Source: Pseudomonadota bacterium
GTDB taxonomy: Bacteria; Verrucomicrobiota; Verrucomicrobiia; Limisphaerales; SXTU01
Length of the DNA: 64,000 bases
Reading direction: 5' to 3'
Assembly: GCA_009924135.1 (NCBI GenBank)
Contig: RFSE01000011.1
Span: 921-64,920 of the forward strand
Position 1 is the first letter of the stretch. Each line of letters starts with the position of its first letter. The translations under genes were made by a program, and so were the position numbers. Positions 8,467 to 64,000 of this stretch are shown here, piece after piece. The notes below the pieces were generated by a model. The model made no database searches. It saw nothing but the letters and a program-made list of their open reading frames with translations, and was not told the origin of the DNA.

Positions 8467-8513
8467 GAAGCCAGGTAGTTTGTCGCCAATAAAACACGAA
8501 ACTGATCGTCCGG

Positions 8514-8551
8514 CGGATGTTTCTGTGTTTCATCTGTGTCCCATCTGTGGC
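8514..8551 (+). promoter_or_regulatory. solo tri-iteron arm (ATCTGTG-type repeats at 11-bp spacing) upstream of the zinc-ribbon gene
   Basis: cggatgtttctgtgtttcatctgtgtcccatctgtggc. It has the same architecture as the arms of the MITE-like elements at 31370 and 45887, and ends 15 nt before ATG 8567. Confidence 0.55.
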
Positions 8552-8566
8552 TAGAAAGAATACGTT

Positions 8567-9141: not shown

Positions 9142-10857
9142 CTACTTCACCACCATGGCGCTGAACGGCAGGACGTAGGCCTGTAAATAGACGAAGATTC
9201 CCACGAGGGTCGCCAGCGCAAGGCTGTGGAAGAAGACGTAGCGCAGGATGCTGCCTTCGTGGCCGTACCAGTTCGTCGCGGTGCTCGCCACGACGATGCT
9301 TTGCGCGTCCACCATCTTCCCCATCACGCCGCCGGAGCTGTTCGCGGCGGCCATGAGCACAGGGCTGATGCCCGTCTGCTCCGCCGTGATCCGCTGGAGG
9401 CTCCCGAAGAGCACGTTGCTCGCGGTGTCACTGCCCGTCAGCGCCACGCCCAGCCAGCCCAGCAGCGTGCCAAAGAACGGATAGAGCGAACCGGTTTTGG
9501 CCAGCGCCAGGCCAAGCGTGGCATCCGTGCCGGAGTATTTGGTGACGTAACCGAGGGCGAGCATCGCGGCGATCGTGATGAGCGAAAAGCGCACGTTCCA
9601 CAAAGTACGGCGATAGACCCGTACCAGTTCCATCAGCGAGAATCCCATGTAAAACCCGGCGAGGATCGCGGCCACGAGGATTCCGGTGCCGGTAGCCGAG
9701 AGCCAGTTGAACTTAAACTCGGCCGCCTCGGGTTTGGTGGGCTTTTCCGGAGTGGGCTGCGGCACCACGGGGAACGTCCGAACCGTGGCGTTGTGCAAAC
9801 GGGGAATTTCCCATTTCGGGGACGACAAGGCATCCAGCCGCTGTTTCATCATCGGCACGCCCCAGAGGAAAACCAGCACGCTGAGCAGCAGCCACGGCAC
9901 CCAGGCACGGCGAACCAGTGATGCGTTTGGGGGTTCGAGTTTCGAGTTTCGAGTTGGCGCGTTGCTGTTCGATTGCGCGGCGGCGTCCGAACCCGAAACT
10001 CCCAACTCCAAACTTGGAACATTTCCCGACACCCACCCATCCTTCGGCTGCCAGACCTTGAGCAGGGCCACCACGGCTCCGAGCGAGCACAGCGCCGCAA
10101 CGATGTCCACCAGCCATGGACCATGGTAATTCGAAACCAGAAACTGCGGCACCGCGAAACTCACGCCCGCCGTCAGGCAGGCCGGCCACACGCCGAGCAT
10201 CCCGCGCCAGCCAGCATAAGCCCACACGACCCAGAAAGGGACGATAAGCGAGAAGACCGGCAGTTGCCGGCCGATCATCGCCGACACGGCATGCAGGTCG
10301 AGGCCGGTAACGCCAGCGAGCGCAATGACCGGCGTGCCCAACGCGCCGTAGGCCACCGGCGCAGTGTTGGCGATGAGGGAAAGACCGGCGGCCTGAAGGG
10401 GCTTGAAACCCAGCTGCATCAGGATCGCCGCCGTGACGGCCACGGGCGTGCCGAAACCCGCCGCCCCCTCGAAGAACGCGCCGAAGCTGAACGCGATGAG
10501 CACCAATTGCACCCGTGGGTCAGGTGCCAAGTCCGCGAGGCTCCCACGCAGGACCGCAAACAAGCCTTTGTCCACCGTGAGCTGGTAAAGGAAAATCAGG
10601 TTCAGAATGATCCATCCGATGGGAAATAAACCATATGCCGCGCCCAGACCGGCCGTCGCAAGCGCGGCATCCGCAGGCATCCGAAACGCCAGCAACGCCA
10701 CCGCCAGGGCCACGCCCAAACCGAGCAACGCAGCGAGGTGGATTTTGATTTCCAACCAGGCGATGGCCCCCAGCAGCACCACCACCGGGAGGGCGGCAAC
10801 GAGCGTTGAAAGCCAGGGGTTTCCGAGCGGGTGGTAGTTTTGCGGCCAGGGTGCCAT
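9142..10857 (-). CDS. lctP: L-lactate permease (LctP family)
   Basis: 571-aa polytopic membrane protein. The N-terminus WPQNYHPLGNPWLSTLVAALPVVVLLG and the overall pattern fit the LctP/LldP family. Carries a low-complexity insert encoded by the heptamer element at 9934-10014. Confidence 0.85.
   Translation of the reverse strand: MAPWPQNYHPLGNPWLSTLVAALPVVVLLGAIAWLEIKIHLAALLGLGVALAVALLAFRMPADAALATAGLGAAYGLFPIGWIILNLIFLYQLTVDKGLFAVLRGSLADLAPDPRVQLVLIAFSFGAFFEGAAGFGTPVAVTAAILMQLGFKPLQAAGLSLIANTAPVAYGALGTPVIALAGVTGLDLHAVSAMIGRQLPVFSLIVPFWVVWAYAGWRGMLGVWPACLTAGVSFAVPQFLVSNYHGPWLVDIVAALCSLGAVVALLKVWQPKDGWVSGNVPSLELGVSGSDAAAQSNSNAPTRNSKLEPPNASLVRRAWVPWLLLSVLVFLWGVPMMKQRLDALSSPKWEIPRLHNATVRTFPVVPQPTPEKPTKPEAAEFKFNWLSATGTGILVAAILAGFYMGFSLMELVRVYRRTLWNVRFSLITIAAMLALGYVTKYSGTDATLGLALAKTGSLYPFFGTLLGWLGVALTGSDTASNVLFGSLQRITAEQTGISPVLMAAANSSGGVMGKMVDAQSIVVASTATNWYGHEGSILRYVFFHSLALATLVGIFVYLQAYVLPFSAMVVK
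9934..10014. repeat. inverted heptamer arrays flanking a 39-bp core, inside the lctP CDS
   Basis: ttcgagt x3 perfect (9934-9954), a core at 9955-9993, then cgaaact cccaact ccaaact (9994-10014). The right array is the inverted counterpart of the left (agtttcg family). Total 81 bp = 27 codons, in frame. Confidence 0.85.
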
Positions 10858-25146: not shown

Positions 25147-25424
25147 TCCACCCCTGGAGGAGCTCAACGAACCTCGAATTCCGGCGACTTCAACCCGTCG
25201 ATTTTTGAATTGCCCGGGGCTGTTTGGACTAAAAGCTTCCTCCAATATTCCTGCCCAAAATCTTCCTGCCATAAGTTCGGCTCCTGAAATTGCGATGCAG
25301 ACGATTGGTGCCGAGGAAAACCAGCGCGAGACCGTCCCTTTTACCTTTTTACTTTTTCCTTTTGCCTTCGCCCCGCGCCCAATTTCCGCTGGCCCACCCC
25401 GGCCCCGGTCTTTAAAACAGCCGC

Positions 25425-31168: not shown

Positions 31169-31369
31169 GGGGGTGACACTACGCCTCCAAAGTTCGGGGT
31201 CAATGGGTTATTCCCCTTTGCGGGCGACCTGACGCAGAAGCGAGTCAACAGGGCGATGCCAGGAGCCATCGGCAAACAGGTTGCGCCACAAAACTGATCG
31301 GCTAATTTGCCGCCAGTTCCCGAACGAACCGCCGCACCACGCCATGCACCTAGCCGGCCCGATCATTAG

Positions 31370-31523
31370 CCACAGATGAAACACGGACGGAACACGGATG
31401 GGGACGAGCGGAGCACGCGTATTGTCGCAGTTGCCTGCCTGGACCAAACGGTGCGGGTCAAACAGCGGGGCAACGCGGCCCCGGCACCGTTGGCTCCGTG
31501 TTTAATCCGTGTTCCATCCGTGG
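31370..31523. mobile_element. MITE-like element, copy 1 (terminal inverted repeats made of triple iterons)
   Basis: The left arm ccacagatgaaacacggacggaacacggatgg and right arm ccgtgtttaatccgtgttccatccgtgg match at about 23 of 28 positions as inverted repeats. About 90% identical by hand alignment, without indels, to 45887-46040. Similarity extends about 14 nt further right. Confidence 0.75.
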
Positions 31524-31586
31524 CTCAACTGCATCGTCCCAACTTAGGCGAAGCTCACCTGACGACGAACGGCACCAGCCTCCCAT

Positions 31587-31614
31587 TCTCAACTTTCAAC
31601 CTTTAACTCTCAAC
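31587..31614 (+). repeat. imperfect heptamer array directly upstream of the glpK ATG
   Basis: tctcaac tttcaac ctttaac tctcaac, then cttccc, then ATG at 31621. Confidence 0.7.
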
Positions 31615-31620
31615 CTTCCC

Positions 31621-36006: not shown

Positions 36007-36015
36007 GGGGGGAAA

Positions 36016-36120
36016 GTGTTCAGTAATCAGTGTTCAGTTTTCAGTCATCGCAGACGCCGACAGCCGTCGGAGTGGACTCAAAACTGAAAACTGAAAACTG
36101 AAAACTGAAAACTGAAAACT
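36016..36120. repeat. inverted heptamer arrays flanking a 34-bp core (radC-lpxA spacer)
   Basis: Left array gtgttca gtaatca gtgttca gttttca (36016-36043). Core catcgcagacgccgacagccgtcggagtggactc, with ccgac-agcc-gtcgg. Right array aaaactg x5 plus a partial copy (36080-36120), the inverted counterpart of the left array and abutting the radC stop codon. Confidence 0.9.
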
Positions 36121-45789: not shown

Positions 45790-45886
45790 TCAGCTTCGAA
45801 GGCTTGAACGGCGAGAATAGGGAAAAGTTGCGTCCGGGGCAAAGGAATTGCCTCAGGGAAAGGCCTTAGCCGGACCGATTCATTCG

Positions 45887-46040
45887 CCACGGATGAAACA
45901 CGGACGGAACACGGATGGGGACGAGCTGAGCACGCATTCTGTCGCAGTTGCCTGCCGGCACCAAGCGGTGCGGGTCATGCAGCGGTGCGGAGCGGTCCCG
46001 GCACCGTTGGCTCCGTGTTTAATCCGTGTTCCATCCGTGG
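45887..46040. mobile_element. MITE-like element, copy 2
   Basis: ccacggatgaaacacggacggaacacggatgg ... ccgtgtttaatccgtgttccatccgtgg. About 90% identical to 31370-31523, with most differences in the interior. It lies between the ATPase start (45789) and the prc stop (46093). Confidence 0.75.
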
Positions 46041-46092
46041 CGCAACTGCATCGTAGGCTAAGCCAGACCGAAATCCACCTGTCCGATTGAGC

Positions 46093-62031: not shown

Positions 62032-62979
62032 TTACTTCCGCCGCCATTCGATCTTCGGTGGTTCGGGCAGTCCCTGGGCCCGGAGGGCGGTGCGGAAGTG
62101 CATCTTTCCCACGCGGGCCAGCCCGGCCACGCCGTGTTGCTCGAAGATCTGCTTGGCCACCTTGTCCACCGCAGCGGACGCGCCTTTGGGCAGTTCGATG
62201 CCCAGGTCCCGGCCCATGGCCGCGAGCCGGGTCACAAACTCGTGCCGGGCGAGGATCGAGGCGGCGGCCACGGCGAGGTCTTCTTCGGCCTTGTGCCGCT
62301 GCACGAGCTTCAGCTTCAGTCCGCGCGCCTTGGCTTCCCGGGCGACGGTGCTCTCGGTGGCGGCGAACTGGTCGATGATCGCGTGGGCGGGCGGCGGGTT
62401 CAGATGATGCGCCGGGGCCAGCAGGGCCAGGATGGAACTGACGTGGCCCTTGGCAAGCAGGGGGTTGAGGCTGCGTTCCTCGCGGTACCGCTGGTTGTAA
62501 TTCACGCCGCCGAGGGCGAGGACTTCGCTATGACAGCCGGGCGTTTCGCGGATAAGCTTGGCGAGGTCGGCAATGCGCCGGTCACTGCCGATGTTCTTTG
62601 AATCCTGGATGCCGGCATCCTTCCACGCGCGCACCACCTCTTCGTTCACGTAAACCGCTGCCACACACAGGGGGCCGAAGAAATCGCCCTTGCCCGATTC
62701 GTCCACGCCGATGCGGGCGGTGAACATCTCCGGGTGCAACACCTCTTCGTAGCCCAGTTCAGCCTGCTTCAATATCTCCGGCTCCAGCACGAACTCGACG
62801 AATTCCTGCGTGCCCTTGCCCTGCACGACGAGCTTGCCACTGTCGTAGAAGACGACGTTGAGTTTGTCCTTCTCACCGGCGAACCGCGCGTAGGGGACGG
62901 TGCGGGGCTTGAAGCCGTGCTCGCGCAGGTGGGCGTCCAACTGGGTCGCCTGCGCGTCCGTCAGCTTGCAGGTGTGCAT
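62032..62979 (-). CDS. rnhC: ribonuclease HIII
   Basis: Trimmed to ATG 62979 (MHTCKLTDAQ...). Has an N-terminal TBP-like domain (VVFYDSGKLVVQGKG) and an RNase HII/HIII core (IGVDESGKGDFFGPLCVAAVYV, DSKNI, AASILAR). Confidence 0.9.
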   Translation of the reverse strand: MHTCKLTDAQATQLDAHLREHGFKPRTVPYARFAGEKDKLNVVFYDSGKLVVQGKGTQEFVEFVLEPEILKQAELGYEEVLHPEMFTARIGVDESGKGDFFGPLCVAAVYVNEEVVRAWKDAGIQDSKNIGSDRRIADLAKLIRETPGCHSEVLALGGVNYNQRYREERSLNPLLAKGHVSSILALLAPAHHLNPPPAHAIIDQFAATESTVAREAKARGLKLKLVQRHKAEEDLAVAAASILARHEFVTRLAAMGRDLGIELPKGASAAVDKVAKQIFEQHGVAGLARVGKMHFRTALRAQGLPEPPKIEWRRK

Positions 62980-63002
62980 GGTCAGCGGTTTCACGGCGCG
63001 GA

Positions 63003-63030
63003 GTTTCGGGTTTGGTGTTTCCGGTTTCGA
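63003..63030. repeat. heptamer array GTTTNNN x4
   Basis: gtttcgg gtttggt gtttccg gtttcga, 24 nt upstream of the rnhC ATG. Confidence 0.8.
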
Positions 63031-63047
63031 GTGCAAACTTCACCCGC

Positions 63048-64000
63048 TTGAGATTTAGTCCAAAGTCCAAAGTCCAAAGTCCAAAATCGCAGCCTGCCGG
63101 GCGCGCACTGGCCACACGCAGCGCAGCTTCCGCCATTCCGCATTCCGCATTCCGCATTCCACCTTCCCTCGTCCCTGCCCTGCTCGGTTGGTTCGCCGCC
63201 GCCGCACGCGACCTGCCCTGGCGACGCACGCTGGACCCCTACGCCATCTGGATCAGCGAGATCATGCTGCAACAGACGCAGGTGAAGACCGTCATCCCGT
63301 ACTGGGAACGCTGGCTGCGTGAATTGCCGGACGCCGCCGCCCTCGCCGCCGCGCCGGAGCAACGCGTGCTCAAGCTCTGGGAAGGCCTGGGCTATTACAC
63401 GCGCGCCCGCAATTTGCAGAAGGCCGCGCAGCAGGTCGTGAGCACTCACGGAGGCCGCTTCCCGCACGCGTTTGACGCCATTTTGGAATTGCCCGGCGTG
63501 GGCCGCTACACGGCCGGCGCGATTGCCAGCATCGCCTTGAACCAGCCCGCACCCATCGTGGACGGGAACGTCATCCGCGTGCTCACCCGCCTCTTTGCCA
63601 TCGGGGAAAATCCGCGCGACAAGGCGACGAACGAACAGCTCTGGCACCTCGCCACGCAACTGGTGCAGGCCGCCGCTCGAATTACGAATTACGAATTACG
63701 CATCGCGGGGCTGGTCGTTTCCGGAGCGTGTTCGGCGCTGAACCAGTCGCTCATGGAGTTGGGCGCGACGGTCTGCACGCCGCAAAGCCCGCAGTGCCTG
63801 CTGTGCCCGGTACGCCCCCATTGCGCCGCGCACCGGGAGGGCCGCGTCGGCGAACTGCCAAACCTCGGGCCGCGCACCGCGACCACGAGCCGGGAGTTTC
63901 ATGCCTTCGTTGTGAACTGTGACGGAAAGTTGCCTGTGACACAAAGGCCCAGCGGCGGAGTGAATGCGGGCTTGTGGGAGTTTCCGAACGTGGAAGTCAC
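63048..64000 (+). CDS. mutY: A/G-specific adenine DNA glycosylase MutY (3' end outside the window; start unresolved)
   Basis: Own translation; not in the ORF track because there is no stop in the window. From 63180: LLGWFAAAARDLPWRRTLDPYAIWISEIMLQQTQVKTVIPYWERW...GLGYYTRARNL...LPGVGRYTAGAIASIA...VDGNVIRVL...NQSLMELGATVCTPQSPQCLLCPVRPHC (HhH-GPD plus 4Fe-4S Cys cluster). There is no in-frame ATG upstream. Candidate starts are TTG 63048, GTG 63015 and TTG 63012. Confidence 0.85.
   Translation, partial: MRFSPKSKVQSPKSQPAGRALATRSAASAIPHSAFRIPPSLVPALLGWFAAAARDLPWRRTLDPYAIWISEIMLQQTQVKTVIPYWERWLRELPDAAALAAAPEQRVLKLWEGLGYYTRARNLQKAAQQVVSTHGGRFPHAFDAILELPGVGRYTAGAIASIALNQPAPIVDGNVIRVLTRLFAIGENPRDKATNEQLWHLATQLVQAAARITNYELRIAGLVVSGACSALNQSLMELGATVCTPQSPQCLLCPVRPHCAAHREGRVGELPNLGPRTATTSREFHAFVVNCDGKLPVTQRPSGGVNAGLWEFPNVEV
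63057..63084. repeat. perfect heptamer array AGTCCAA x4
   Basis: agtccaa agtccaa agtccaa agtccaa, read directly. Confidence 0.95.
63134..63161. repeat. heptamer array CATTCCG x3 + CATTCCA
   Basis: cattccg cattccg cattccg cattcca, read directly. Ends 18 nt before the first conserved MutY codon. Confidence 0.95.
63678..63698. repeat. perfect heptamer array CGAATTA x3 inside the mutY CDS
   Basis: cgaatta cgaatta cgaatta (21 bp, in frame) encodes RITNYEL. It lies within a segment that is about 18 aa longer than the corresponding E. coli MutY loop before the NQ..M.LGA motif (comparison from memory). Confidence 0.9.

Follow-up and report, generated by a model that had tools for sequence, protein, structure and literature searches.

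Heptanucleotide tandem arrays in and beside mutY of a Limisphaerales metagenome scaffold

The rnhC-mutY locus and the reading frame of its arrays

The 64,000-nt stretch of DNA analysed here (the window), part of the 75,959-bp metagenome scaffold DAMP20-1 (SAMN10254600), ends in two divergent genes, rnhC for RNase HIII and the DNA-repair gene mutY, and short tandem arrays with a period of 7 nt lie between and within them. A preliminary description of the window regarded three such arrays, of unrelated unit sequence, as the bulk of a spacer between the rnhC start codon and the first conserved MutY codon at 63180. The arrays themselves are present as described: GTTT recurs at 63003, 63010, 63017 and 63024 in a degenerate GTTTNNN x4 array, the AGTCCAA (63057-63085, x4.1) and CATTCCG arrays are both perfect, the latter for 3.9 copies at 63134-63160 before a final CATTCCA, and the intervening segments of 26 and 49 bp each occur once in the window. 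The rnhC ATG at 62979 also stands. The spacer does not, for only the GTTTNNN array is intergenic, and AGTCCAA and CATTCCG belong to the mutY coding sequence (Table 1). A fourth array, CGAATTA, lies further inside the gene.

Relatives of the locus were gathered by RNase HIII and comprise 80 species-level genomes and 80 further metagenome contigs, with loci numbered in the form L005 or L086. The 80 genomes are nearly all labelled Limisphaerales, Pedosphaera or Verrucomicrobia subdivision 3; 17 of them reach 87-92% protein identity, with the top match at 92%, and no strain of the window's own species was found with RNase HIII in genome or metagenome collections. Several seemingly close pairs show synteny breaks that leave pairwise alignment usable for a few kb only.

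Where mutY begins decides how the arrays are to be read. Upstream of 63180 the MutY frame continues open for a long way, and that stretch has no ATG. Each of 32 clade loci has a GTG, represented in the window by the TTG at 63048, that is separated from the rnhC ATG by 59-70 nt and reads in frame into the conserved RDLPWR motif. Across these 32 loci the codon stands at 15 distinct distances from the MutY core, between 93 and 159 nt, every one of them a multiple of 3. In L012, L016 and L019 the GTG is the sole possible start downstream of an in-frame stop, and in distant relatives an ATG is followed directly by array-encoded peptide (MRVNSKLKTQNSKL..., MGLNPKSEIRNPKL..., MARPTPHSALRTPHL..., MAAHASRITHHLS...). 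L017 carries a 290-nt insertion resembling a miniature inverted-repeat transposable element (MITE) precisely where mutY starts. This insertion spans 70-360 nt upstream of rnhC, whose start is at 9679 in this locus; it has long internal inverted repeats, and the flanking direct duplication of CTTCGCCCGCGTG keeps both the GTG and the open reading frame (ORF). Judging from the in-frame GTG conserved in 32 of 32 relatives, mutY probably starts at TTG 63048 and not near 63180, where the preliminary description had it begin. A conserved in-frame start and spacings that are all multiples of 3 mean that the AGTCCAA, CATTCCG and CGAATTA (63678) arrays are therefore translated. Two other start candidates were discarded: the Leu codon at 63180 (LLGWF), which varies between CTG, TTG, CTA, CTC and ATG among relatives, and a GTG at spacer position 51-52, which is in frame in few relatives only. 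On the source contig, mutY has been called from an internal ATG (63264) that falls within the conserved IMLQQT motif, which drops about 72 codons, the conserved LLGWF...RDLPWR segment among them.

At one locus, L155, the region 110-140 nt upstream of rnhC (rnhC start 483) holds an array of ACTGAAG/ACTGAAA/ACTGACC units and an in-frame TGA directly upstream of the MutY N-terminus. This mutY has no ATG, GTG or TTG ahead of the core, and would have either a non-canonical start or an inactive allele.

The encoded peptides lie at the margins of the protein. When the full protein is aligned with MutY of G. stearothermophilus, residues 16-355 of the latter align from query residue 44, leaving the first 43 residues outside, and the 63678 array falls within a 13-residue insertion relative to the solved MutY, before the FNEAL/NQSLMELG helix. 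The interior loop that holds this insertion ranges from 37 to 99 aa among relatives, and its frame is kept in 107 of 107 loci that have both flanking motifs. Array units are free of stop codons in any cyclic frame of the sense strand in 40 of 40 cases (80% expected).

The preliminary description also read the locus as an array-core-array layout. Of the two cores, the first includes the mutY start codon and the second is linker sequence within the coding region; both are single-copy, and we found no meaningful inverted repeat, terminal repeat, target-site duplication or dispersed core that would mark a MITE or an element of the repetitive extragenic palindromic (REP) type. The single-copy cores and the lack of terminal repeats rule out an array-core-array element at rnhC-mutY. 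As a separate observation, the window does contain one locus truly of this layout, the gap between radC and lpxA (36015-36120, minus strand), which reads radC stop TGA, (GTTTTCA)x6, a 30-nt core with a small hairpin, (ACTGAAA/ACTGAAC)x4, 9 nt, lpxA GTG. Its two arrays are reverse complements of each other, with a predicted hairpin of -47 kcal/mol (z = -5.9).

Table 1. Features of the rnhC-mutY region, in window coordinates.
Feature	Position	Strand	Remarks
rnhC (RNase HIII) coding sequence	62032..62979	-	ATG at 62979; Pfam RNase_HII 4.6e-28 and DUF3378; same gene called on source contig
rnhC-mutY intergenic region, 68 nt	62980..63047		Conserved shared leader/promoter segment, from start-codon spacing and conservation in close relatives
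Degenerate heptamer array GAGTTTC GGGTTTG GTGTTTC CGGTTTC GAGTG (GTTTNNN)	63001..63033		Perfect in L005 and L015
Probable mutY start codon, TTG	63048..63050	+	Homologous GTG in frame with MutY core in relatives
AGTCCAA x4.1 array, perfect	63057..63085	+	mutY codons 4-13, peptide SPKSKVQSPKS
GC-rich coding linker of MutY N-terminal tail	63086..63133	+	Frame open; single occurrence in window; length varies among relatives
CATTCCG x3 + CATTCCA array	63134..63161	+	mutY codons 29-38, peptide IPHSAFRIPP
Conserved MutY core (HhH-GPD, Fe-S cluster loop, start of NUDIX-like domain)	63180..64000	+	Pfam HhH-GPD 1.4e-26; continues past window end
CGAATTA x3.3 array, perfect	63678..63700	+	mutY codons 211-218, peptide RITNYELRI, surface loop

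Period-7 enrichment and turnover of the arrays

Arrays were found with Tandem Repeats Finder (TRF), complemented by counts of perfect arrays of at least 3 copies and of regions with at least 85% match. Among perfect arrays of period 4-15 in the window, five have period 7, one has period 5 and the other periods have none; at the 85% threshold, seven period-7 regions compare with 0.35 expected from dinucleotide-preserving shuffles, and periods 4, 5, 6 and 8 are at shuffle expectation. For the relatives, repeat statistics were computed on 139 non-redundant loci, together with the window 1.63 Mb of DNA. This set holds 60 perfect period-7 arrays against 0.0 expected, compared with 6 of period 6 (0.2 expected), 6 of period 5 (2.6 expected), 36 of period 4 (31.4 expected) and 0-1 for each period from 8 to 12. 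When the 1.5 kb holding mutY is left out (1.39 Mb), 19 period-7 arrays remain, with 4-5 for periods 5-6. Period-7 arrays number about 83 per Mb in the close clade and 26 per Mb in distant relatives, and there are none in 41 kb of a clade at 77% identity; within loci the density is about 200 per Mb in the mutY region vs. 13.7 per Mb in the flanks, a contrast inflated by ascertainment and shared descent. Copy numbers span a narrow range, from 3.0 to 4.6, and for at least 33 of the 60 perfect arrays an ORF runs through the array and has coding potential to either side of it. The arrays are thus real and far beyond chance. Under the check put forward in the preliminary description, period 7 is enriched over neighbouring periods in the window and across the lineage, and the proposal made there of a common generating process fits an enrichment that is both lineage-wide and specific to this period.

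The two N-terminal coding arrays keep their positions among relatives while their units change. Orthologues at the AGTCCAA site read AGTTCAA, AGCTCAA, AACTCAA or AATCCAA and encode xSKxKxQ tails across the order. The CATTCCG site has two states: about 4 copies of CATTCCG, GTTCCGC, ATTCCCC, CTTCCCC, TCATCCT, TCATCCA or CTTCAAC, or a collapsed form of about 1.7 copies that is 21 nt, i.e. 3 units, shorter. Variant nucleotides at this site are homogenised, each being found in every copy of its array. In the interior loop of MutY the peptides are 7-residue-periodic (RITNYELRI, SQLSTLNSQL, SPLSTLHSPL, VTHYALRIT, ITHHASRIT, AQNPESRIQN) and nearly every species has a different one; ATCACGC-type loop arrays reach relatives at 64% identity. 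No out-of-frame mutY allele was seen among 32 N-terminal regions and 107 interior loops.

Comparisons of closer pairs show how localised this variability is. The 5.4 kb compared between L086 and L087 (99.2% identity) contain a single indel, the 21-nt (GGATGAT)x3 in the mutY tail. L016 and L102 are about 95-98% identical over the stretches compared, but the two array sites match at only 25 of 50 and 30 of 50 positions. In two species pairs, the same two loop alleles, of TCAAC and TCAC type, segregate, and the divergent tract is wider than the array. Copy number and unit sequence thus vary between orthologues at two coding arrays, as the preliminary description would have predicted, but the intergenic array is static in length.

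This intergenic array is perfect in L005 and L015, as 4.1-4.6 copies of ACTCGAA/GAGTTTC, and its length is invariant in about 30 relatives, within a strongly conserved leader; the start codons of rnhC and mutY stand 66-70 nt apart in all close relatives. On the rnhC sense strand it places GAAAC every 7 nt. A scan of 62700-63400 for promoters and terminators returned no sigma-70-like promoter, a search of 62500-64000 against Rfam gave no relevant match at E <= 1, and folding of the leader and the mutY 5' region gave no excess structure (z = +0.2, +1.0 and +1.1). We take the array to be part of a constrained leader/promoter region shared by the two genes, and not free-running low-complexity DNA.

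Two further regularities concern the units themselves. Coding arrays have a G-poor sense strand (C 95 vs. G 35), and the excess of C over G holds in units that are stop-free on both strands (55 vs. 20), which excludes avoidance of stop codons as its cause. A replication-strand bias can be set aside as well: the array bias tracks the gene strand, the GC skew of the window is weak, and the sense-strand G/C skew of the window's genes overall is only -0.02. The other regularity is that two arrays from separate sites of the same genome have a common unit (at most 1 mismatch) in 21% of pairs, compared with 6-9% of non-orthologous pairs between genomes (GC-stratified permutation, p = 0.005 over genomes and p = 0.0007 over pairs, with about 20 kb per genome sampled and one genome, L074, supplying 6 of the 16 matching pairs). 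In L116 one unit recurs at two mutY sites, and in L015 the mutY loop and the rnhC leader have a unit in common. Units are therefore not fully unrelated, contrary to the first description: sharing within a genome exceeds sharing between genomes by a factor of 2-3, which suggests that arrays are converted or copied from one another or that each genome favours units of its own.

Beyond the three arrays between rnhC and the MutY core, the period-7 loci listed in the preliminary description were recovered at 9934 (x3.1, perfect), 25337 (x4.6, 84%), 31591 (imperfect), 36015 (x4.4) and 63678 (x3.3, perfect), and TRF on the window adds a longer array that had been missed, at 36076 (x6.4). The locus at 9934-10014 (minus strand) belongs to an L-lactate permease (Pfam 1.6e-152) and combines AACTCGA x3.1 with GGAGTTT-like x2.7, both of them in frame within the central loop; the orthologous loop in L046 carries a CCGAAAT array. 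At 31587-31620, the G-free, heptamer-like series CTCAACT/TTCAACC/TTTAACT/CTCAACC abuts the glycerol kinase ATG (31621) on its upstream side, and 25337-25368 is a G-free CTTTTNC x4.6 array located 57-88 nt upstream of a beta-lactamase-family gene. Array hot spots that recur in relatives include an acyl-protein-synthetase-like ORF, a DUF58-like ORF and the lactate permease loop. In L057, L062, L072, L073 and L075 the first of these lies about 6.7-7.6 kb upstream of rnhC and has arrays at 2-3 fixed loop positions, with units that vary by species (GATTTCC, TACGATT, AATTCAA, AAAACTC, GTCACCT), mirroring mutY. The window also contains a MITE-like element of about 175 nt at 31360-31540, 45875-46055 and around 8470-8560, two copies being about 90% identical and the third diverged, with terminal inverted repeats of 11-nt-phased motifs (GATGAAACACGGACGGAACACGGATGG ... 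CTCCGTGTTTAATCCGTGTTCCATCCGTGG).

Origin of the arrays and competing explanations

The explanation we favour, at a probability of roughly 70%, is that these heptamer arrays are driven by slippage and tolerated where they lie, in a disordered tail, in a surface loop and in a constrained leader. They are heptanucleotide microsatellites, of a type abundant across Limisphaerales (Verrucomicrobiota), and not parts of one discrete element. The first array is a degenerate remnant whose length is fixed within the conserved 68-nt rnhC-mutY leader, and the AGTCCAA, CATTCCG and 63678 arrays are translated into low-complexity sequence of the N-terminal tail and into a surface loop, both beyond the conserved glycosylase fold; the encoded peptides are probably near-neutral. 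Arrays would form and be renewed through gain and loss of whole units, the generating process likely being replication slippage with a preference, at the level of the lineage, for 7-nt steps; conversion between arrays possibly assists. Such turnover would spread any variant unit through all copies of its array, and in coding DNA selection would let only net changes of three units (21 nt) survive. Survival of three-unit changes alone would explain why relatives differ in 21-nt steps, why all alleles are in frame and why units lack a sense stop.

Several observations weigh against this explanation. The intergenic array is fixed in length with no reading frame to constrain it, and strains that are at least 99% identical (L008/L010/L090/L091; L094-L099) have equal copy numbers, although the L094-L099 group consists of six identical samples of one population with decayed arrays. 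A gain of three units in one step is unusual for slippage. Some of the hypervariability resembles an exchange of divergent haplotypes by recombination and not change in place, and neither the strand bias nor the sharing of units within genomes is predicted by simple neutral slippage.

Some of these facts would suit a role in translation. According to this possible, but distinctly less probable, alternative, the arrays are cis-acting translation-initiation modules, G-poor and free of structure, that promote initiation or bind a single-strand RNA-binding protein (of the cold-shock or S1 type) in a 7-nt register. Arrays do occur near starts: one abuts the glycerol kinase ATG, one lies 9 nt upstream of the lpxA GTG and one 22-54 nt upstream of the rnhC ATG, and in mutY they occupy codons 4-13 or, in distant orthologues, the positions directly after the ATG. 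Their sense strands are G-poor, the mutY 5' region folds no better than its shuffles (z = +1.1), the intergenic array keeps its 7-nt-phased GTTT/GAAAC at fixed length, and a like placement with the same hypothesis has been published for TAACTGA repeats and Nostoc heptamers. Against this, many arrays are deep in genes (the MutY loop at codon 211, the lactate permease loop, the acyl-protein-synthetase-like ORF), the units are too diverse for a single specific binding protein, and the folding z-scores are not significant. A contribution to initiation would be partly compatible with slippage and does not exclude it.

Selection on the peptides is unlikely. Here the N-terminal tail, rich in Lys and Ser (xSKxKxQ), would let the glycosylase bind DNA non-specifically or make interactions, and the DNA repeat would be incidental, an idea encouraged by the retention of SKxKxQ-type tails (SPKSKVQ, SSKFKVQ, NSKLKTQ, NPKSKIQ) at the MutY N-terminus across the order. 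However, the third array and the loop arrays give unrelated peptides in each species and have collapsed in many, the same peptides occur in loops of unrelated proteins, and what is conserved is the perfect DNA heptamer and not amino-acid similarity. We consider just as unlikely a broader proposal in which self-renewing in-frame modules of about 21-32 nt are copied or converted between sites, re-seeded at tail and loop hot spots, and concentrated in mutY as a reversible mutation-rate switch; the exchange between sites would account for units peculiar to one genome.

The switch taken by itself, i.e. a phase-variable mutY, we regard as quite improbable. Gain or loss of one unit would turn MutY off and create a transient mutator subpopulation, and a further slip would restore it. 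The gene has the raw material, with three repeats of non-multiple-of-3 units, the simple sequence repeats of a contingency locus, inside a single repair ORF of 1.2 kb; perfect arrays persist at these sites in relatives whose RNase HIII identity is 61-92%, unit homogenisation needs recurrent contraction and expansion, and the density of arrays is highest in the mutY region. That contrast, however, is the one swollen by ascertainment and shared descent, and comparable in-frame arrays occur in unrelated housekeeping genes. The ON/OFF alleles of a contingency locus were not seen: the frame is kept in all 32 N-terminal regions and all 107 loops. The arrays, at 3-4.6 copies, are short, and near-identical strains show no +/-7-nt differences.

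Elhai and co-workers reportedly found in 2008 that small dispersed repeats of 21-27 nt are mobile in Nostoc. Least probable of all is that the arrays are likewise very small mobile or templated modules (about 21-32 nt), pasted or converted between genome sites and not grown in place, for which unit sharing within genomes (21% vs. 6-9%, with L116 and L015 as examples), the narrow copy range of 3.0-4.6 and a leader array homogenised without change of length would speak, but the arrays have no target-site duplication, terminal repeat or conserved flank, units at the same site mostly change from relative to relative by one nucleotide at a time, as if they had evolved in place, and the sharing statistic draws 6 of 16 matching pairs from L074 at about 20 kb per genome.

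Comparison with known heptanucleotide repeats

The preliminary description knew of no described element class with an array-core-array layout. The class of the arrays is already described: both the over-representation of heptanucleotides and an explanation by slippage were published in 2007 (PMC4679880, PMC4692102). As these two papers relate it, Mrazek, Guo and Shah (2007) found heptanucleotides to be the most abundant class of long simple sequence repeats (LSSRs) in most prokaryotic genomes, and proposed that 7 nt is the stretch contacting DNA polymerase, favouring slippage. The arrays described here resemble prokaryotic heptanucleotide LSSRs in being short tandems of 7-nt units of many sequences, with at least 3 head-to-tail copies, a period-7-specific excess and copy numbers that vary between related genomes by whole units. 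They differ in that most sampled arrays are in frame in genes and not in intergenic stretches. Verrucomicrobia are not mentioned in the literature that we found on heptanucleotide repeats.

A parallel in placement is offered by the TAACTGA repeats of marine Beggiatoaceae, cyanobacteria and Bacteroidetes, which sit in 2-6 copies just upstream of starts, with occasional in-ORF copies in variable surface loops, 7-nt-step indels between strains and an inverted pair (PMC4679880). Start-proximal placement, in-ORF loop copies, unit-step indels and the presence of an inverted pair are shared with our arrays, and the window's ACTGAAA array (36076) has the 6-mer AACTGA in common with the TAACTGA unit. 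That family, in contrast, has a single dominant unit and is mostly intergenic (145 of 170 sets). No TAACTGA tandem was present in the window or the 160 loci, and the ACTGAAA arrays (window 36015-36120; L155) share only the 6-mer with it. In cyanobacteria, Nostoc PCC 7120 has 3-8 contiguous heptamers by the recF and recO start codons (bioRxiv 10.1101/2022.06.06.494920). Together with the short tandemly repeated repetitive (STRR) sequences of Calothrix, these cyanobacterial heptamers resemble ours in lying near starts or promoters, including those of DNA-repair genes, and differ in being described as regulatory and intergenic where ours are largely translated. The Nostoc recF unit, TTCAAAA, forms arrays in the distant relatives L049, L062 and L075; the STRR units CCCCAGT, TTGGTCA and CAACAGT form no tandem in the window or the 160 loci. 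In Xanthomonas and Nostoc, the GGGAATC/GGGGAYT repeats are flanked by the same genes in related species and are highly variable in length and sequence (PMC4692102), but they are G-rich and quadruplex-forming, unlike the G-poor sense strands found here, and their units do not occur in the window or the 160 loci.

For mutY itself there is a precedent in H. pylori, where slipped-strand mispairing at a homonucleotide tract abolishes function and raises the mutation rate about 26-fold (Huang et al. 2006, as cited in PMC8875331). Both genes have a slippage-prone, non-multiple-of-3 repeat within the mutY ORF. H. pylori, on the other hand, is a host-adapted pathogen, and the arrays here are short, all in frame, and belong to free-living freshwater and soil bacteria. 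If they slip at appreciable rates, a repair gene with three arrays would amount to a reversible mutator switch outside pathogens, and, were the phase-variable reading of mutY to hold, free-living bacteria would possess a heritable, built-in switch of mutation rate.

The cause of the bacterial heptanucleotide excess has been in question since 2007 and studied almost only in cyanobacteria, Xanthomonas and Beggiatoaceae. To these our data add a verrucomicrobial order in which most sampled arrays are in frame in genes. This provides a natural experiment: selection would filter changes to three-unit steps, and orthologous hot spots can be traced across 61-92% RNase HIII identity. The comparison also corrects a gene model, the mutY call at 63264 on the contig cutting conserved residues. 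The arrays are thus a new lineage-level instance of known heptanucleotide microsatellites and not a new class of element, an instance notable in that, compared with those described before, they are largely translated, persist and turn over at fixed hot spots, and cluster in mutY.

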